DNA of 64,000 bases, taken from Dictyostelium discoideum. Lineage: Eukaryota. Below are positions 3,740 to 59,220 of the stretch, one piece after another. Both the position numbers and the translations under genes were made by a program. Numbering within the stretch: position 1 is the stretch's first letter; the number at the start of each line of letters is the position of its first letter. Where the stretch lies: positions 3,872,001 to 3,936,000 of the forward strand of contig CM000153.2 in the NCBI GenBank assembly GCA_000004695.1, in the 5' to 3' direction. The notes under the pieces were generated by a model. The model was given only the letters and a program-made list of their open reading frames with translations. It was not told the DNA's origin and searched no databases.

Positions 3740-4089
3740 CCCCCACTTTTATATGATACCAAAAATGATGATATGTTATTAGTTTTATATTTAAAGGGGG
3801 TGGGTTTATTTTATTTTTTTTAAATATTAAAATGATTTTTTGATAAAATTAAAAAAACTTCTTGTAACCCTCCCATTTAATCAAAAAAAAAGTAAATCTA
3901 ATTTAAAATAATAATTTATATAAATCTGTAAAATGGTTATTTTTATTCAAAAAGAGATTGAAATAATATTTATATATATATATGGGGGGTATATATTTAA
4001 TAACCATATTTTATTTTAAATTATATAAAAAATAAAAAAATTTAAATCATAATAAAAACAAAAATAAATCCTATTTTTTAAAAATTTAA

Positions 4090-4137
<48 letters not shown>

Positions 4138-4351
4138 TATAAACGATTGTATATCTTTTTTCTTTATTTAAAAAAAAAATTGAATTTATTTTAAAATAGT
4201 AAAAAAAAAAAGACTAAAAAAAAAGATAAGATCTTTAAACATGTTTTCCAACGTTTGTCCCTTTTTTTTTTTTTTTTTTTATTTTTTTTTCTTTTTCCTC
4301 TTTTTGAAAAATTAATTTATAAAGAGTTTGTGATTTGTAGTTTGTAATTTG

Positions 4352-4389
<38 letters not shown>

Positions 4390-4402: not shown

Positions 4403-6652
<2,250 letters not shown>

Positions 6653-19400: not shown

Positions 19401-19727
19401 AAATCACCAAAAAAAAAAAAAATTTTCAAAAACTTTTTTTCACATAAGCGTTTCATCACAACTTTTCTCACAAAAATAAAAAAAAAAAAAAAAACAAAAT
19501 AACAATAATAGAAAAATTTATATACAAAATTCTATTTTGTTTTGAACAAATCCTTAGGAATAAATATTTATATTATATATAAATAATTAAAAACAACTAA
19601 ATATATTGGCTTTATATTTTTTTTTTGAAAAAAAAAAACAAAAAAACAAAACTAAAAAAAACAAAAAAAAAAACGAAACAAAAAACAAACAATCTATTTA
19701 TTTATTAAATCTATTTATTGATTTAAT

Positions 19728-22502: not shown

Positions 22503-23906
<1,404 letters not shown>

Positions 23907-24340: not shown

Positions 24341-24572
24341 AAAAAAAAAAAAAAATTTAAAAATAATTTATTCAAAGAAAAAAAAAAAAAAACACATCGA
24401 TAAAGAAATTTGGCAAGAGTGTTCTTGAAATGAGAAATTAAAAAGAAATTATTTTTTATTTTTTTATTTTTTTTATTTTTTTTTTTTTATTATTTTTAAT
24501 TATTCTTGAAATTTTTTATTTATTAATCTATTTATTTATTTATTTATTTATTTGTTTTTTATTTATTTAAAA

Positions 24573-27326
<2,754 letters not shown>

Positions 27327-27795: not shown

Positions 27796-28845
<1,050 letters not shown>

Positions 28846-29445
28846 TATTTTTTAAATATTGAATAAAGAAAAAAACTTGTATAAAAGGTAAGGGAGGTCG
28901 GGTGTAAAAATTTCAACATTAAAGTGGTAATTTTATGAGGTACTGATGGGTTTGTCACCTCTTTTTTTTATTTTTTTTTTCACTTTTTTTTTTATTTTCT
29001 GTGTGGCTCCCCTTAACAAAAGTCAAAACAAAAATTTAAAATAAATTTTATAACTTTTTTTTATTTTTTTTTTTTAAACTAATTTTTTATTTGTGTAAAA
29101 AATTAAAAAAATGTTTTTAATTTAAATTACACTCAAATTAACTTTGTAAATTTAATTATTATATTTAAATAAAAGCAGTTTTTACAATTTAATAAATTCA
29201 TTGAAATCATTTAATTTCATTCAAACACCAAGTTTTTTATTTCAAAGAATTTTTTTTTTTGAATCACAAAAAATTAATAACCCCATCAATTTTTTTTTTT
29301 TTCTCAATTTTTTTTTTTTTTTTTTTTTCTTATCAAAATAAAAAAAAATAAATATAAATAAAAAAAATCTTTTTTGGATATATTTATATTATTTTAATTT
29401 TTCTATTTATTTGTTTTTGTGCATGAATTTATATTAAATAACAAA

Positions 29446-31941
29446 ATGTTACAAAGTTTAAAAAATGTTTTTTTTTCAGAAACCACAACTACAACAACAA
29501 CATCAACTACAACACCAGTATCAAATTCAGCTATTAAAAGATACATTGGCAATATAAATGATTATAAGAATGCAAACTATTTTAATTATTATAGAATTTT
29601 GGAGAATAAATATGACTACCTTAGGGACACCTTTGGTTTAAAAACTTTTTCAAACAATGAAACATTCAAATTAATTGATTTTACAATTGATTCAGAAATG
29701 AATAATACTTGTATAACATCAATTTGGAATCAAAAGTATTCAAATAATTCAAGTATACCAGTTGAGGGTATTTATAAAATTCCATTAGCACCATATAGTG
29801 TCATTTCAGGATTCACAGTAGAATATCAAGATAAAGTTTTCATCGGTAAAATTAAATCAAAAGAAAAAGCACAAAATCAATACTCTGATTCAATCGCAAG
29901 TGGTGGCCAAGCATTCCTCGCAGAGAAAACTCAAGATGGTCAATTCTCATTTAGAATCGGTAATTTACCACCAAATGAAAATGTTACAATTCATTTAACA
30001 ATTATTTCAGGAGTTTGTCCTCATTTATCAAGTTTGCAAAATTGTTTCCATCGTTTCTTATTCCCAAATTATTCATTTAATTTCCAATTCAATTTAAATA
30101 TTAAATTAACATTACCAATTAAAACTATTGAATTATTATATTATCCAAATAGAGAAATTAAATTCAAAGAAAACTCTAATAATAAAGAAGCAACTCTTAC
30201 ATTCTCTTCAAAAAACGGTATTGATAGTGATATTGTCTGTATAGTTGAACCAGAGAATGATATTGAAAGACCACAATCAATTATTGAACATTCAAAATTA
30301 AATAATACATATGCAGTCAGTGTCAACTTTACACCATCATTCAGTCATTTAACATCGGATGATGTAAATCAAAAAAGTGAATTTATATTCCTCATCGATT
30401 GTTCAGGAAGTATGAGTGGTGAACCAATTAAAAAAGCAAAAAGAGCTTTAGAAATTATTATTAGAAGTTTAAATGAAAATTGTAAGTTTAATATTTATTG
30501 TTTCGGTAGTAGATTTACAAAAGCATTCGACAATTCAAAAATGTACAATGATGAAACATTAGCTCAAATTTCAGGATATGTTGAAAAAATTGATGCAGAC
30601 TTAGGAGGTACAGAATTATTACCACCAATCCGTGATATCCTTTCCACTGAATCAGATTTCGAATATCCAAGACAATTATTCATTCTTACAGATGGCGAAG
30701 TCAGTGAAAGAGATAGTTTAATAAACTATGTAGCAACAGAATCAAATAACACTAGAATCTTTACATATGGTATTGGAAATAGTGTAGATACAGAATTAGT
30801 AATTGGTTTATCAAAAGCATGTAAAGGTTATTATGAAATGATTAAAGATAACTCAAATTTCGAAGAACAAGTAATGAAATTAGTTTCAATTGCATTCGAA
30901 CCAACACTTTCAAATATTAAAGTAGATTGGGGTACAGAATTACAAATTGAACAAGGTCCAACCAAAATTCGTCCACTTTATTCAGGTGAGACTTTAATTG
31001 TTTATGCATTATTAAAAGATAATAAAATTCCTCAATCAACAGTACAAGTTTCATTAATTGGTGATGGACCAACTGGTTCAAAATTAGAATTCCCAATTAC
31101 ATTAGATTTCTCAAAAACAATTGATTATGAAAATAATTCAGTTCATACATTAGCAGCATTTAACATTATAAAAGATTTAGAAGAAGTTGAAAGAAAAGGA
31201 AATCATTCAAACAATAGAGACAGAATAGAAGAGTTAGGAAAAAGCTATGGATTAATATCAAAGTATACTTCATATATTGTCACTGCAGCTTCTGAACAAG
31301 TAACTGAAGAAACAATGAAAACTTTAAATATTATCCAAACACCAACAACAACAACAACAACATCACACTCAAATCGTAGAAGAGAAGAAGCAGATCATAC
31401 TATGAATCAAACTTTGCTTAAAAATTGTGCTGTTGTTGATGATTTATTTGAAAGTTGTGAAATGTTATCAGAAACCTCAATTAAATTTGAATGTAATAGA
31501 GTGTACAAAAAAATTCCTTCCTCTTTATCAAAGATTTTTTCATTCTTTTCATCACTATCCACATCTTCCTCTGTGAGATCAGAAGTTGTATCCAATTTTG
31601 ATAATGATATAGAATCAGAGGAAAAGAAAAATAATAGTATTAATAATAATAGTGATAGTTTATTAAAATTAATTAAACTTCAAAAAGCCAATGGATCATG
31701 GAGTTCACCATTTAGTGAATTCAAAATTGATTTATCAAAGAAACCATCAAACATTGATAGCGATGATATTTGGATCACTTTAATAGTAATCAACAAGATT
31801 CTTAATGATTATCCAACTCAACAATCTCAATATGACCTTGTAATTCAAAAGGCTTCAAAATGGGTAAAACAACAATTAACAAGATTAAACATTCCAAATC
31901 AATATGGCTCATTATTAGCTACTTCAAAATTACATATTTAA
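29446..31941 (+). CDS. VIT + vWA domain protein, tandem copy 3 (831 aa)
   Basis: ATG at 29446. About 95% identical to copy 1 through the VIT and vWA domains. C-terminal third diverges (unique Cys-containing segment NRRREEADHTMNQTLLKNCAVVDDLFESCEMLSE.., no poly-Asn). Shares the terminal KLIKLQKANGSWSSPF..QYGSLLATSKLHI block. Confidence 0.8.
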   Translation: MLQSLKNVFFSETTTTTTTSTTTPVSNSAIKRYIGNINDYKNANYFNYYRILENKYDYLRDTFGLKTFSNNETFKLIDFTIDSEMNNTCITSIWNQKYSNNSSIPVEGIYKIPLAPYSVISGFTVEYQDKVFIGKIKSKEKAQNQYSDSIASGGQAFLAEKTQDGQFSFRIGNLPPNENVTIHLTIISGVCPHLSSLQNCFHRFLFPNYSFNFQFNLNIKLTLPIKTIELLYYPNREIKFKENSNNKEATLTFSSKNGIDSDIVCIVEPENDIERPQSIIEHSKLNNTYAVSVNFTPSFSHLTSDDVNQKSEFIFLIDCSGSMSGEPIKKAKRALEIIIRSLNENCKFNIYCFGSRFTKAFDNSKMYNDETLAQISGYVEKIDADLGGTELLPPIRDILSTESDFEYPRQLFILTDGEVSERDSLINYVATESNNTRIFTYGIGNSVDTELVIGLSKACKGYYEMIKDNSNFEEQVMKLVSIAFEPTLSNIKVDWGTELQIEQGPTKIRPLYSGETLIVYALLKDNKIPQSTVQVSLIGDGPTGSKLEFPITLDFSKTIDYENNSVHTLAAFNIIKDLEEVERKGNHSNNRDRIEELGKSYGLISKYTSYIVTAASEQVTEETMKTLNIIQTPTTTTTTSHSNRRREEADHTMNQTLLKNCAVVDDLFESCEMLSETSIKFECNRVYKKIPSSLSKIFSFFSSLSTSSSVRSEVVSNFDNDIESEEKKNNSINNNSDSLLKLIKLQKANGSWSSPFSEFKIDLSKKPSNIDSDDIWITLIVINKILNDYPTQQSQYDLVIQKASKWVKQQLTRLNIPNQYGSLLATSKLHI

Positions 31942-32474
31942 TATAAAAAAAAAAAAAAAAAAAAAAAAAAACTTGTAAATCTTTTCTTTTCTTTTCCAAT
32001 AAATAAACATTTTAATTATTAAAAAAAAAAATAATAAAATAATTTTATGAAATTGTTTGCATAAATAATATTATTGTTTATTGATTGGTATAAGAATAAT
32101 TGCAAATTACAAAAATGTACAATTAATTCGATATATATTAAAAAAAACTTTTTAAAAAAGAAAGAAATTAAATTTTATTTTAAAATCAATAAGAATTTAA
32201 AATGTGAGCTCTTTATTTTTAATAATTAAAAAAATATACCAAATTCATTAATTAAAAATTTAATTTATTAAATAAATATTTGAGGAATTAGTTTTCCACT
32301 TTAATTGTTTTTTTTTTTTTGTTGTTTTTTTTTTTTTTTTTTTTTGATGCTTATATTTTTGATGTTTGTAAATATGTAATTATAACAAAATTCTACAATA
32401 TGAAAGATTTGATTGATGGTTTACTAGGTGATATCATCTCATCTTTCTTTTTAATTGATTTTTTTTATATATTT

Positions 32475-33183
32475 CTAAATTCCTACTTCAGCTCCTGATG
32501 ATGAAGAAGATGAGGATGATGAAGAGGATGAAGAGGATGATGAAGATGATGAGGAAGACGAAGATGAAGATGATGAGGAAGACGAAGATGAAGATGAAGA
32601 GGATGAAGAAGAGGATGATGATGATGAGGATGATGATGAGGATGATGATGAGGATGATGATGAGGATGATGATGAGGATGATGATGAGGATGATGATGAT
32701 GAAGAGGAGGATGAGGATGATGAAGATGAAGAAGAAGAGGATGAGGATGATGAAGATGAAGAAGAAGAGGATGAGGATGATGAAGAAGAAGAAGATGAGG
32801 AAGAAGAAGAAGATGAGGAAGAAGAAGATGATGATGATGAAGAAGAGGATGAAGAAGAAGAAGATGATGATGATGAGGAAGATGATGAACTATAAGAAAG
32901 CAAGTTTCTTGAAGTTTCAATAACCAAAGAAAATCCTCCTATTTTATTTTCTAATAAATCATTTCCATTTAAATTTTTTCTTAAAAATAAAAAAAAAAAA
33001 ATTAGTATTTACTGGATTTATTTATTCTAGGAAAAAAAAAAAAAAAAAAACCTACTTTAAAGAGTATAAATTTATTTTTGGTTCTTGATTTGTTATATTG
33101 ACGCTTTTTCTATGAGGGTTAATAAACATCGGAATTGTTATTAACAAACATGCAAAAATTATGAAAAACCATTTATAATTCAT
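32475..33183 (-). CDS. Candidate secreted poly-serine protein: exon 1 33056..33183 (signal peptide) and exon 2 32475..32889 (~135 consecutive Ser), 166-bp intron; ~180 aa
   Basis: ATG at 33183-33181 encodes MNYKWFFIIFACLLITIPMFINPHRKSVNITNQEPKINLYSL. Donor AA|GTAGGT at 33055-33050 (phase 2) and acceptor TTCTTATAG at 32891-32890 join in frame to TCA/TCT/TCC Ser codons and the C-terminus GAEVGI-stop. The poly-Ser ORF has no ATG of its own. The opposite strand reads the same tract as poly-Asp/Glu (see finding). Confidence 0.4.
32495..32890. repeat. Imperfect (GAT/GAA/GAG)n trinucleotide tract of ~400 bp (Asp/Glu on the plus strand, Ser on the minus strand)
   Basis: Read directly: gatgatgaagaagatgaggatgatgaagagg... 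with internal higher-order (GATGATGAGGAT)n blocks. Confidence 0.9.
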
Positions 33184-47808: not shown

Positions 47809-47821
47809 TTTAATAAAAAAG

Positions 47822-47893
47822 CTCCCTGTCCGGGAATTGAACCCGGGCCTTTCGCGTGACAGGCGAAAATCCTCACCACTAGACCAACAAGGA
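47822..47893 (-). tRNA. tRNA-Asp (anticodon GUC), 72 nt, intron-less, followed by a T6 Pol III terminator
   Basis: Minus-strand sequence TCCTTGTTGGTCTAGTGGTGAGGATTTTCGCCTGTCACGCGAAAGGCCCGGGTTCAATTCCCGGACAGGGAG. 7-bp acceptor stem (1 G-U pair). D-loop AGTGGTGA. Anticodon stem TTCGC/GCGAA with loop CTGTCAC (GTC at 34-36). T-arm CCGGG-TTCAATT-CCCGG. Discriminator G. TTTTTT immediately 3'. Confidence 0.85.
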
Positions 47894-50083: not shown

Positions 50084-52210
50084 TTACAAGTTCCAGATCG
50101 CTTTTTTATAATCATTCCAATCACCATCAAAGTTTTTAACTTCTTTTGGTTCACCTTCTTCACCATCGAAATACCAAATTTCATCACAAACCAAAGAAAT
50201 TAATCTTTCATCGTGAGATACTAAAAGTATACCACCTTCGAAAACATTGAGAGCATGACAGAGAGCATCAACGGTATCAATATCCAAATGATTTGAAGGT
50301 TCATCGAGTAAGAGAATGTGAGGTTTGGTGTAAGAGATTTGAGCCAATACGACACGAGACTTTTGACCACCAGATAAAGTATTTACAGTACGAAGGGCGA
50401 TATCACCAGACAAACCAAATTTACCCAAATGAGAACGAGCAGTTTGAGCGGTGGTACCAGGATATTTGGCGAGGAAATTATCGAGTGGAGATTTGGAGAG
50501 ATCCAATTGATCGACGAAATGTTGACTGAAACGAGAGAATCTTAGCTTACCATTACGGATGACCAAACCATTGGTTTCTTCCAACTCGCCACATAACAAA
50601 CGAAGGAGAGTTGTTTTACCGGCACCATTTGCACCGACGAGAGCTACACGACTACCCATATCGATACCAAGATTGAGATTTTTAAAGAGGAGTTTATCTG
50701 GAGTGTAACCAAATGAAACGTCTTGGAATTGAAGAATGGGTGGTGCCAATGGTTCAGGTTCCAAGAATTGAAGGGTAACGGTTGGATCATCCAATACTTC
50801 ACCAATATCCTCCATACGTTCCAATTGTTTGATACGAGATTGTGCCATTTTTGCACGTTTAGCATTGTAACGGAAACGATCGATAAATGCTTGAATATGT
50901 TTTTTTTGAGATTGTTGAGCTTCGAATGAACGTTGTTGAGCCTTCAAACGATCAGAACGAGTACGTTCAAACACTGAATAGTTACCCTTATAATAGTCGA
51001 TCTTTTTATTGTTCAAATGCATGATATCGGTACAAACTGCATTGAGGAATTCACGTTGATGTGATACGATGACCAAGGTACGATTCCAATTGACCAAGTA
51101 GGACTCTAACCAAAGACAAGCAAACAAATCCAAATGATTGGTTGGTTCATCCAATAAGAGAACATCTGGTTGAATAAAGAGTGCACGAGCCAATGAAATT
51201 CTCATTCTCCAACCTCCACTGAAACTTTTGGTTGGTTGTTGTTGCATTTCCTCTGTGAAACCTAAACCCGAGAGAATTGCTGCAGCTCTTGATTCGGCGG
51301 TATGAGCATCGATATGATTGAGTTTCTCATAGATGCTATTGAGTTTCTCTGAGAGATTATTCTTTTCACTCTCTGGGAGAGCGTTTAAACGTTTCTCTTC
51401 CTTTAAGAGACGATCCCTCTCAACGTCTGCTTCGAGTACACACTCGATAACTGTGGTTTCATTACCATTGACCTCTTGTTCCACATGAAGAATTGAGAGA
51501 TTATTATCGATACCAATCTCTCTTGAGGCAATATGACGAAGAAGTGTTGTCTTACCAGTACCATTTCTACCAATTAAACCATACTTTCTACCATAGTTTA
51601 GATTGAGATCAGAGTTGATGATCAAATCATTCTTACCATAGGTGACATTGAATGCATCCACATGAATATCACGTGATTGATTGGTACCACGAATAGTTGA
51701 TGCCATCATGGTTTGTTGTTCTTTCAATGAGTTTAATGCTGCCAATGCTGCATTTTGACGAAGTTTCTTTCTCTCCTCTTTGGCAAGACGTGCTTCCTTT
51801 CTTGCATTGTAACGTTTTTCATTGGCTTCCAATTGATCCTTGTTCACAATGGAAATGCCTTCCTCTGCTTTCATCCATGATACTGCTGCTCCAACACGAT
51901 CATCCAATCTTTGAAGTGCTACTGGTTGTGATAATTGTGTAATTGTTTGTTTCTGTTTAATTGTAATGAGTTTTTCATTCACCAATGCCTCCACTATACC
52001 ATTGATTGCGCTATTGACTCCACTTTCATCATCTGCAAAACATGTATCCAATAATAATGGTGATAATATCTCTGTCAATTCATCCATATCACTATTGACT
52101 CCTTCATCTTCAAATACTCCTGATATATAATCAATGATTGTTTCATCTATATCTTTGGTTTTATCTCCTAATGTTTTTTCAATTACACTTTTAATTTCCT
52201 TTGATACCAT
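50084..52210 (-). CDS. ABCF-subfamily ATP-binding cassette protein (GCN20/ABCF3 orthologue type: N-terminal GCN1-interaction-like domain + two ABC ATPase domains, no TM domain); 708 aa, single exon
   Basis: ATG at 52210. Walker A GRNGTGKTTLLR and GANGAGKTTLL. ABC signatures LSGGWRMRISLARALF and LSGGQKSRV. Walker B LLLDEP twice. Collinear with yeast GCN20 (DIHVDAFNVTYG.. compare DIHIDTFDLYVG; SILHVEQEV compare SILHVEQEL). Confidence 0.9.
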   Translation of the reverse strand: MVSKEIKSVIEKTLGDKTKDIDETIIDYISGVFEDEGVNSDMDELTEILSPLLLDTCFADDESGVNSAINGIVEALVNEKLITIKQKQTITQLSQPVALQRLDDRVGAAVSWMKAEEGISIVNKDQLEANEKRYNARKEARLAKEERKKLRQNAALAALNSLKEQQTMMASTIRGTNQSRDIHVDAFNVTYGKNDLIINSDLNLNYGRKYGLIGRNGTGKTTLLRHIASREIGIDNNLSILHVEQEVNGNETTVIECVLEADVERDRLLKEEKRLNALPESEKNNLSEKLNSIYEKLNHIDAHTAESRAAAILSGLGFTEEMQQQPTKSFSGGWRMRISLARALFIQPDVLLLDEPTNHLDLFACLWLESYLVNWNRTLVIVSHQREFLNAVCTDIMHLNNKKIDYYKGNYSVFERTRSDRLKAQQRSFEAQQSQKKHIQAFIDRFRYNAKRAKMAQSRIKQLERMEDIGEVLDDPTVTLQFLEPEPLAPPILQFQDVSFGYTPDKLLFKNLNLGIDMGSRVALVGANGAGKTTLLRLLCGELEETNGLVIRNGKLRFSRFSQHFVDQLDLSKSPLDNFLAKYPGTTAQTARSHLGKFGLSGDIALRTVNTLSGGQKSRVVLAQISYTKPHILLLDEPSNHLDIDTVDALCHALNVFEGGILLVSHDERLISLVCDEIWYFDGEEGEPKEVKNFDGDWNDYKKAIWNL

Positions 52211-52572
52211 AATTTCTTCTATATATATATATATAATCTTTATTTATGTGTAACTGTTTTATGTGTGTATGTGTATTGATTATTAGTTTTTATATTTATT
52301 TAGGTGTTGTGTGTTTTTTTTTTTATTTTTTTTTTTTTTTTTTAGGAAAAACAATAGATTTTTTTTTTCTCTCTAAAATTTTTTTTTTTATTGACACCTT
52401 ATTAGGTTTTGATTGACTGAAAACAAAAAAAAAAAAAAACTTAATTAATGGTAGTACAAAATATGAACTTGTACTGAAATTTTTATTTCTATTTATATAA
52501 AAAAAAAATTGGTTTTTTTTTTTTTTTTTTTTTTGACCAGTTTGGTGTGCAGCTTTTCAAAAAAATTCGGTC

Positions 52573-57774: not shown

Positions 57775-59220
57775 TTAAATACAAATTGGATCACCTTGAT
57801 TTGGAATAATAATTCTAACACCATTATTATTTGCTTCTTTTAATTGTTGATAGATTACTCTTTGAGTTGTCCAACCATTTGGATCTTCAGCAACTTGTGG
57901 TTTAATGTGTTCGATGATTAATTTAACATGTTTGAGATTAGTCATTGGTGGAGAGGTTTGAATGGATTGAACCAAGAGTTGATCCATTAATTTCATGACA
58001 TCTCTTGGACGGAGATGACCAAACATAGCAGAGTCTGGAGTATTATTTGGGAAAGAAGTTTCGATGTAGATAGCTTTTAATTTATCGATTTTAATTTGTT
58101 TCCAGACGGCATAGATTTTACCTTCCCAATCACAAGCGACAGAGGATGGAACACCAGTATCAGAGAAGAAAGCGATTTGTTCACCAGAGATACTATCAGT
58201 GAAGAGGAAAGAAGTTGATATTAAATTATCGTGACACAATTCAAATGGTTTAACTTTGACAGAGAAAGGGAATTCATTGGCGACCAAAGACATAGTGGTG
58301 GCATTGTATGGGACCAACTCTGTGAATGGATATTCAATGCCACTTGCTAAACTAAAGTATTGATAACGACCAAATGATGGAAGATTTGGCCAAACTTGAT
58401 TATTGAAAAGATTAGTAGAGATTGAATTGATGGTTGATGGTAAACCCATGATGGTTTTCTTTTGGAGGATACTTGAAGAGGTGAAATCAGTTGGTTTGAA
58501 CCCTAATTTACGAATGAGACCCATGATACCATTGTTGATTGGTGGTTGAACATCGATCCAATTCTTTGCTAAATAATCCTCTGGTGAAACTAAAATTAAA
58601 CCACCTACATGATCTAAATGACTGTGACCAATGAAATAACTCATAACGTGATTCTTGAGGAACCATGAGGTTCTTTGCTCTGGTAAAACTGCCCATGATG
58701 GATAGGTAATATTGAAGAGTGTATTGAAATATTTGAAGGTGGTTAATCTTCTAACACCTTGCCATACTGTACCTGCATCCAATGCAATGAAAAGATTACT
58801 ACCTTTCTTTGTCAAGAGGAATGATGAGAGATTACCTTCATCCAATCCACCAGTTGTACCCAATGGTATGGTTATGTATGATGCATCCCTACAATCTTTA
58901 GTTGCAAATGATCCACTATAATAATTCCAATTCTCTGGTGTATAATAATCATTTAAATTATAAAAATTACTACCATCGTTACTGTTTTTAACTGATCTTC
59001 TTTCTGATCTCTCTGCTGAAATTCCTATATCTTCATCGTCATCATCACAATCTTCTTGTTGATGGGAATTTACAATATTTAAAATTATAAAAATTAAAAG
59101 TAATAAACTAATTCTATTTTTGGGAAAAAAAAAAAAAATAAAAAATAAAAATTTCCAAAAAAAAAATTCCAAAAAAAAAAAAAAAAAATTAGTATAAACA
59201 ACAAATCAATTTCTATTTTT

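Follow-up and report, generated by a model that had tools for sequence, protein, structure and literature searches.

A probable two-exon gene for a poly-serine protein with a signal-peptide-like head in Dictyostelium discoideum

The Dictyostelium discoideum genome is rich in triplet repeats that code for homopolymers, Ser included (PMC3460934, PMC3188802), and displays a high slippage rate (PMC7466956; also PMC3188802). Of the D. discoideum repeats located in genes that have a D. purpureum orthologue, only 5% appear to be homologous (PMC3188802). In bacteria, polyserine linkers are found in secreted carbohydrases of Teredinibacter, Saccharophagus and Cellvibrio, with an average of ~44 residues and 80%–83% Ser (PMC2699552). 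The present analysis concerns a stretch of 64,000 nucleotides (nt) of D. discoideum DNA (assembly GCA_000004695.1, contig CM000153.2, positions 3,872,001 to 3,936,000 of the forward strand), here termed the window. Positions 32475–33183 of the window, on the minus strand, are very probably a two-exon gene that encodes a signal-peptide-like head, a linker, 132 Ser and a short tail.

The Ser-rich stretches of SP96 and cprG are acceptors for O-linked or phosphodiester-linked sugars; these stretches are appended to a folded domain and are not pure homopolymers. Phosvitin, dentin phosphophoryn and Plasmodium SERA, from animals and parasites, are secretory proteins with Ser runs that undergo dense post-translational modification. 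Ser-linked N-acetylglucosamine-1-phosphate (GlcNAc-1-P) and mucin-type O-glycosylation occur in D. discoideum, as indicated by titles cited in PMC11795075 and PMC4920372. The dictyostelid pathways of O-glycosylation and phosphoglycosylation are little known (PMC11795075).

The locus is already annotated, and coding triplet repeats, those for Ser among them, are characteristic of D. discoideum (PMC3460934). The gene is unusual in degree, with 63% of the protein in a run that is 100% pure, and in the conservation of the Ser run.

Gene model and triplet tract

An NCBI-annotated D. discoideum assembly (GCA_054883475.1, contig L001) has a 709-nt gene on the minus strand, with a product of 210 amino acids (aa), located next to the gene for DDB_G0285981 and on the opposite strand. 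The DNA of this called gene is identical to window positions 32475–33183. Only one GT..AG intron gives a product of 210 aa; it occupies positions 33055–32980 (76 nt) and reads AAA/GTAGGT ... TTTATTTTTAAG/AAA.

Exon 1 is at positions 33056–33183 of the minus strand. It has 128 nt, begins with an ATG at 33183–33181 in the context AAAATG, encodes MNYKWFFIIFACLLITIPMFINPHRKSVNITNQEPKINLYSL plus 2 nt, and ends in phase 2. It is the sole open frame among the six in that stretch, and it starts at the same position as the called gene of GCA_054883475.1. The first-pass annotation of the window, made from the sequence alone, had placed the minus-strand start, the 128-nt exon (33183–33056) and a GTAGGT donor (33055–33050) at exactly these positions, in agreement with the annotated gene. 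The intron (32980–33055, minus strand, 76 nt) runs from GTAGGT through T-runs to TTTTTAAG and has a GC content of 14.5%.

Exon 2 (32475–32979, minus strand) encodes a 30-residue linker, 132 Ser, the tail GAEVGI and a stop. The linker at the start of the exon, (K)KNLNGNDLLENKIGGFSLVIETSRNLLSY, is at 32892–32979 of the minus strand, is open in the Ser frame and has 22% GC. The poly-Ser tract (32496–32891, minus strand) has 132 unbroken Ser codons (1 AGT, 64 TCA, 41 TCT, 24 TCC and 2 TCG) and is the reverse complement of (GAN)131 at 32497–32889. It makes up 63% of the 210 aa protein. The first-pass figure of ~135 Ser codons was too high: the count is 132 in the genomic frame (32891–32496), or 131 with an acceptor at 32890. 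The C-terminal tail, GAEVGI followed by TAG at 32477–32475, occupies 32475–32495 of the minus strand, is without a hydrophobic C-terminus, and ends where the called gene ends. A gene model was thus pre-existing and the locus needs no re-annotation, except at most for the acceptor.

Over positions 19412–41989 of the window (22.5 kb) there are 22 mismatches and 17 gap openings relative to GCA_054883475.1, i.e. 99.53% identity. The 709-nt gene, including its 393-nt triplet repeat, is identical in the two, despite the high polymorphism reported for such repeats (PMC3460934).

On the plus strand, positions 32497–32889 read (GAN)131, with 63 GAT, 42 GAA, 24 GAG and 2 GAC over 393 bp. The tract had been described as a ~400-bp imperfect GAT/GAA/GAG repeat; it is real, and it is a (GAN)n rather than strictly a (GAW)n repeat, as the unit counts show. 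All base changes among the 131 units are at the third codon position, positions 1 and 2 being fixed. Tandem Repeats Finder (TRF) detects higher-order periods of 24, 30 and 36 nt with ~80% match. Among other GAN runs of at least 10 codons in the 64 kb, none is longer than 11 codons.

The Asp/Glu frame of the plus strand is open from 32479 to a TAA at 32893–32895 and reads IPTSAP-(D/E)131-L-stop. The Ser frame of the minus strand is open from ~32997 to the TAG at 32477–32475 and reads ...LLSY-(S)132-GAEVGI-stop. Both frames lack an ATG, as had been noted earlier. Any (GAN)n sequence is stop-free in three minus frames (Ser; Ile/Phe/Leu; His/Leu/Pro) and two plus frames (Asp/Glu; Met/Lys/Arg), and the open reading frame (ORF) listing over the tract accordingly has three overlapping ORFs of 150, 145 and 141 aa. 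Open frames on both strands follow from the arithmetic of (GAN)n, and bidirectional codability is therefore no signal in itself. As a constraint on the DNA, “only Asp/Glu” and “only Ser” are the same thing (GA fixed, N free), and its strand can therefore not be read from the tract itself. Given the poly-Ser gene on the minus strand, the Asp/Glu frame is unused and (GAN)131 is simply the antisense of (TCN)n.

Homologues on environmental contigs and the conserved head

The unspliced 43 aa exon-1 peptide was used as query in an exhaustive HMMER search against 1.84 billion representative proteins and gave one match, a 49 aa sequence termed P0003 (E-value = 2.5e-5, 39% identity, residues 1–41). A word-indexed search with the head alignment likewise returned P0003 only. 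P0003 is located on an environmental scaffold, L003, of 26.7 kb and 33% GC, where ELO and PTP-like phytase genes flank it. About 310 nt downstream of this head, on the same strand, there is an ORF with 165–169 consecutive Ser, then GDN and a stop. Exon 1 of L003 ends in phase 2 at a GTAAAC donor, the same phase as in the D. discoideum gene.

Scanning metagenomes with the two-sequence head alignment yielded two more contigs, L004 and L005 (tblastn E-values = 1e-10 and 3e-8). Each has one unbroken ORF that consists of MKNTYFILALVG[MV]LLVLPSILQPARKRVQITNEEPKIDIY, a linker of 14–15 residues, a Ser run (283 in L004, 219 in L005), a single Ala and a stop. Linkers of the homologues measure 14–26 aa overall. 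The tails are GAEVGI in D. discoideum, GDN in L003, and A in both L004 and L005.

In L003, the region 4036–4353, between the head exon and the Ser run, has a possible 66-nt middle exon at 4253–4318 (SAEHVVSRVISSFSLSSVSSSS). The putative intron after it is only 35 nt (GTAAAG...TTTAG), and skipping of the middle exon is also in phase. L003 resembles D. discoideum in that its Ser run can be reached by several in-phase routes.

All six Ser codons are used in the Ser runs of the homologues, with AGY at 37%–48%, and there are no non-Ser codons among the ~800 codons of the four runs. That runs of 165–283 residues are pure in spite of six codons indicates a probable selection on the amino acid. The antisense frames of these runs are mixtures of L/E/D or contain stops, and are never pure D/E. 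Because the antisense in the three homologues is not an acidic homopolymer, Ser on the strand of the head is the only conserved reading. Homology thus settles the strand, as the head and the pure Ser run are on one strand in three contigs. The first-pass annotation had also judged the minus-strand model to be the better supported of the two strands, and this holds: there is an annotated gene at 32475–33183, and three homologues have the head and then 165–283 Ser on the same strand. The analysis shows the strand, the reading frame, exon 1, the donor and the annotated intron, as well as the conservation of head plus poly-Ser in the family.

Figures for the head are based on an alignment, A2, of the four heads from D. 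discoideum, L003, L004 and L005. Twelve columns are invariant (M1, F6, L14, P18, P23, R25, V28, I30, N32, E34, P35 and I37), and eight of these (P23 onward) lie past the hydrophobic core. The consensus over ~40 residues is M..[KT][YW]F...LL..P....P.R[KR].V.I.N[EQ]EP[KQ]I[DN][IL][YF].

Residues 1–21 (33121–33183, minus strand) form a segment like a signal peptide or signal anchor, with the n-region MNYK, the core WFFIIFACLLITI and Pro18. The Kyte-Doolittle maximum over 11 residues is 3.16 at residues 7–17 in D. discoideum, and the homologues show the same profile with maxima of 3.2–3.65. Across the four heads the hydrophobic core has 12–13 residues, the n-region is basic and Pro18 is invariant. 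The D. discoideum head has a basic n-region, an h-region within the 7–15 residues usual for classical signal peptides, and a helix breaker. Candidate signal-peptidase sites are LPS/I and LPA/I in the homologues, and only LIT/I in D. discoideum. From this anatomy, targeting of the protein to the endoplasmic reticulum (ER) is a reasonable prediction.

Residues 22–40 (33064–33120, minus strand), NPHRKSVNITNQEPKINLY, form a conserved, hydrophilic motif past the hydrophobic segment, which contains an N-I-T sequon. The consensus of this motif is P-x-R-[KR]-x-V-x-I-x-N-[EQ]-E-P-[KQ]-I-[DN]-[IL]-[YF]. Directly after the core there is a basic cluster (33103–33114, residues 24–27), which reads HRKS in D. 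discoideum and SRRR, ARKR and ARKR in L003, L004 and L005. The cluster of the homologues is similar to dibasic or furin-like processing sites, and could mark cleavage of a pro-peptide instead of belonging to the mature N-terminus.

Judged by their sequences, the four members make up a small, previously undescribed family with a conserved head, a short linker, 130–280 pure Ser and a tail of 1–6 residues. We tentatively put forward, as plausible rather than probable, that this is a conserved eukaryotic family, probably amoebozoan, whose mature product is essentially an encoded Ser homopolymer of 130–280 residues, its purity kept by selection, with nothing ahead of it but a signal peptide and a conserved motif of ~20 residues. 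If so, an extracellular polymer of mucin-like, proteoglycan-like or poly-phosphoglycan-like type could have this product as its minimal core, and the family would be a counter-example to the view of Dictyostelium homopolymers as non-conserved “junk”. The family may be much wider than four members and be hidden by low-complexity filtering and clustering in databases.

Neither the heads nor the full-length L004 protein matched a Pfam family at E ≤ 1, and no paralogue of the poly-Ser gene was found in the 64-kb window. Literature searches (neighbouring DDB_G identifiers; polyserine with Dictyostelium) returned nothing on the poly-Ser gene.

Competing explanations and proposed role

Read on the plus strand, the tract would belong to a gene with an ATG at 32400, a 28-nt mini-exon (32400–32427, MKDLIDGLL), a 64-nt “intron” (32428–32491, GTGATA...TTCAG), 131 Asp/Glu codons, then Leu and a stop, i.e. 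a hyper-acidic product of 143 aa that ends in DDEL. The first-pass annotation had the mini-exon at 32399–32426, one position too early, the GTGATA being at 32428; it was right that the mini-exon joins the acidic frame in phase through a weak donor, which matches GTAAGT at 3 of 6 positions. Besides the phase, such a gene is favoured by tract codons that suit D. discoideum Asp/Glu usage better than Ser usage, by an oligo(dT) run at 32308–32345 upstream of the ATG, and by an AATAAA 60 nt past the stop. It is nevertheless extremely improbable. The donor is weak and the “intron” has 22% GC; the first exon has 9 codons with a coding log-likelihood ratio that is not significant (p ~0.12); poly(A) hexamers are uninformative, AATAAA/ATTAAA occurring 10.7 times per kb per strand; and MKDLIDGLL is not hydrophobic, so that there is no signal peptide and DDEL is meaningless. 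The plus-strand gene would also leave exon 1 (33056–33183) unexplained and has no homologue support. Decisive is that the antisense of the Ser run in three homologues is not an acidic homopolymer, and that the conserved head is on the other strand. This comparison of sequences excludes that the tract functions to encode an acidic protein on the plus strand, an alternative that had been given too much weight earlier. It is most unlikely, too, that the locus makes no functional protein at all and is a neutrally expanding microsatellite, with the annotated ORF an artefact of prediction or a gene in decay. The majority of D. discoideum homopolymers lack conservation and are regarded as slippage by-products under weak selection (PMC3188802), and the D. 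purpureum locus examined is without such a gene; however, the variation of the tract is confined to the third codon position, the head is intact with 12 invariant columns in four sequences of the same architecture, and the homologues keep 165–283 Ser pure despite six codons.

Within the minus-strand gene, the choice of acceptor and the fate of the head allow other readings. Enumeration gives three in-phase acceptors for the phase-2 donor, 32980, 32908 and 32890; the further AGs, at 32909–32908 (148-nt intron, 186 aa) and 32891–32890 (166-nt intron, 180 aa) of the minus strand, are possible alternative or cryptic sites. The first-pass acceptor, TTCTTATAG ending at 32890, is present and in phase, yet the annotated 210 aa requires 32980, 90 nt upstream; 32890 is probably too far downstream by this distance. 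The intervening 90 nt are open in the Ser frame and have 22% GC, like exon 1 (22%–23%), and a 166-nt intron would have 19% GC compared with 3%–14% in local introns. (The reconstructed introns of neighbouring genes have 91, 94 and 140 nt, 3%–11% GC, and GTAAGT or GTATGT donors.) The codon log-likelihood ratio of the linker is +10.5 in frame and −15 and −25 out of frame, although ~5% of GC-matched segments outside long ORFs attain +10.5 (p ~0.05). An acceptor at 32890 would remove the linker; the homologues retain a linker of at least 14 aa, and the LLSY at the end of the D. discoideum linker is like the ...TISY, ...TISF and ...VISSF (...IS[YF]) that precede their Ser runs. Intron GC, the open 90 nt, the codon ratio, the LLSY likeness and the 210 aa product with its 76-nt intron all favour 32980, evidence that is good but not conclusive. 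Use in vivo of 32890 or 32908, alone or alternatively, is unlikely without being negligible: all three sites are in phase, TTGCTTTCTTATAG is a good pyrimidine-rich acceptor, and L003 too has two in-phase routes to its Ser run. Slightly more weight, though still a doubtful case, attaches to the same gene product keeping its head as an uncleaved signal anchor, i.e. to a type II protein that exposes poly-Ser as a brush on the surface, not to a protein secreted in soluble form. The hydrophobic stretch of 17–19 residues (Kyte-Doolittle 19-residue mean 2.1–2.5), the lack of A/G/S at a plausible −1 position in D. discoideum, and a hydrophobic-region sequence unusually conserved for a signal peptide point to an anchor, but the c-regions of the homologues are canonical-looking (LPS/I, LPA/I) after a 12-residue core and a helix-breaking Pro.

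A candidate acidic ER-resident protein with a C-terminal [KH]DEL was rejected: its start (MKDLIDGLL) is not hydrophobic, its end is DDEL, and the homologue antisense consists of L/E/D or stops.

Several results weigh against the two-exon, secreted poly-Ser reading. With codon frequencies trained on 8,537 codons from long ORFs of the window and used in absolute form, the codon log-likelihood ratio against non-coding sequence within the tract is 232 for GAN and 159 for TCN, i.e. the plus frame fits better, and TCC is in ~3.6-fold excess for Ser while GAG is only ~2-fold for Glu. These codon statistics are weak evidence on the strand, since the repeat units are copies of one another and not independent, and they were discarded as a discriminator, (GAN)n and (TCN)n being one constraint. 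In D. discoideum the head lacks an obvious small residue at −1 for signal peptidase, which makes its cleavage uncertain, and the annotated 210 aa model may be purely a prediction. None of the 210 aa, 143 aa and 43 aa models has an exact match in the protein collection (of these, the absence of the 210 aa product is the one that counts here), and a word-indexed homologue search with the 72 aa head gave no candidates. Finally, at the D. purpureum locus identified by its TMEM164 orthologue (P0002, contig L002), RFC1 follows and there is no poly-Ser gene; the same locus has no tblastn match to the head and no GAN/NTC tract.

Both the exact-match collection and the representative library lack the D. 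discoideum 210 aa protein itself, and the D. discoideum TMEM164-like protein was likewise missed by the word search, which returned only the D. purpureum orthologue. As the query proteins themselves were not returned, database negatives for low-complexity or D. discoideum proteins are unreliable. Word-indexed and clustered protein databases can lose pure poly-Ser proteins entirely.

For the two-exon poly-Ser gene, a possible mechanism is that the head would direct the protein into the ER, where the Ser homopolymer would serve as an unstructured acceptor for dense O-linked modification, perhaps mucin-type GlcNAc, GlcNAc-1-P or fucose-GlcNAc-1-P-Ser (Fuc-GlcNAc-1-P-Ser). The protein would then form a hydrated brush, possibly polyanionic, that is secreted or else tethered to the surface through an uncleaved anchor at its N-terminus. 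A disordered acceptor for O-modification would be the simplest reading of 130–280 Ser with no other domain. The D. discoideum tract has probably been homogenised, recently, by triplet slippage, which would account for its higher-order repeats of TCN only, compared with the mix of AGY and TCN in the homologues. With the Ser run as the bulk of the protein, kept pure in relatives with mixed codons, the gene offers a tractable case for pure poly-Ser in the secretory pathway, e.g. as a substrate for the poorly understood dictyostelid O-glycosylation and phosphoglycosylation (PMC11795075).

Genomic setting and comparison with known systems

The window has 14%–38% GC per 2 kb, with long A and T runs between ORFs. 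The ORF at 29446–31938 of the plus strand, which adjoins the poly-Ser gene, is identical to DDB_G0285981 (Q54MG1, von Willebrand factor A (vWA) domain protein, AX4). The window is accordingly nuclear D. discoideum DNA, in which short, AT-rich GT..AG introns are to be expected. The poly-Ser gene is located between DDB_G0285981 and a TMEM164-like gene. A 38-nt T-rich run (plus strand) at 32308–32345 is ~55 nt upstream of the ATG at 32400 and 130–170 nt past the minus-strand stop. On the accepted model it is within the intergenic region shared with the 3′ end of the vWA gene. Oligo(dT) stretches are typical of D. discoideum promoters, and the run resembles such a stretch.

Two tandem VIT + vWA paralogues, at 24510–27323 and 29398–31938 of the plus strand, are 96.6% identical over 1.9 kb. 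Between them are partial duplicated blocks of 85%–94% identity, including 26624–27362/28142–28881. These copies upstream of the poly-Ser gene look like a recent local expansion of a gene family. Short-period repeat blocks at 22590–22790, 26889–27036, 28404–28566 and 6249–6414 cross-match with 91%–98% identity in numerous shifted registers. Probably these blocks are low-complexity coding tracts common to vWA-family and CCCH genes, e.g. the Thr runs of the vWA ORF. The window has two ORFs of 749 aa, which are unrelated; a connection between them was considered and dismissed, the shared length being a coincidence.

The sole tRNA gene of the window is a tRNA-Asp (GTC) at 47821–47893 of the minus strand. 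In D. discoideum, TRE retrotransposons use tRNA genes as landing sites. An ABCF-type double ABC ATPase ORF (PF00005 + PF12848) at 50087–52243 of the minus strand is the GC-richest block of the window (37.6%), which suggests that the gene may be highly expressed. The ORF at 57778–59205 of the minus strand matches the class-II cAMP phosphodiesterase family PF02112 (E-value = 1.8e-145), and we take it to be probably the extracellular phosphodiesterase gene pdsA.

Titles cited in the two papers link the spore-coat protein SP96 with Fuc-GlcNAc-1-P-Ser, and the Ser-rich domain of the cysteine proteinase cprG with GlcNAc-1-P. As predicted for the poly-Ser protein, SP96 and cprG combine N-terminal ER targeting with a Ser-dominated unstructured stretch. 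Unlike these, the poly-Ser protein is without an evident folded domain and its run is a pure homopolymer; its modification is proposed by analogy. No homology, shared folded domain or glycosylphosphatidylinositol (GPI) signal of the SP96/PsA/cprG type was found (Pfam at E ≤ 1; the 6-residue tail is hydrophilic or small). Phosvitin, phosphophoryn and SERA have no sequence relation to the poly-Ser protein, and their Ser runs are much shorter or interspersed (DSS; ~14–35 Ser) and accompanied by other domains.

The bacterial polyserine linkers offer another likeness, i.e. a secreted-type protein with a long, near-pure Ser stretch, the significance of which is obscure in the bacterial case (PMC2699552). 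They join catalytic and binding modules, whereas the Ser runs of the poly-Ser family have 132–283 residues, are 100% Ser and join nothing. An assignment to the linker carbohydrases or to the serine-rich repeat adhesins, with their dipeptide repeats and LPXTG anchor, was rejected, as no domains were detected, Ser is the only residue of the run, and a GT..AG intron is present in what is a eukaryotic gene.

The closest comparison is with the coding homopolymers of D. discoideum (Asn, Gln, Thr, Ser), which are likewise in-frame trinucleotide repeats in exons, with Ser a favoured residue. The called coding sequence has 132 Ser, encoded by TCN codons and one AGT only, with nested TRF periods. Low codon diversity and higher-order units are shared with these homopolymers and are consistent with recent slippage. 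Typical D. discoideum homopolymers, however, are tens of residues within ordinary proteins and mostly unconserved, whereas here 132 Ser account for 63% of the protein, and three other sequences have a homologous head with an equivalent run of 165–283 Ser after it.

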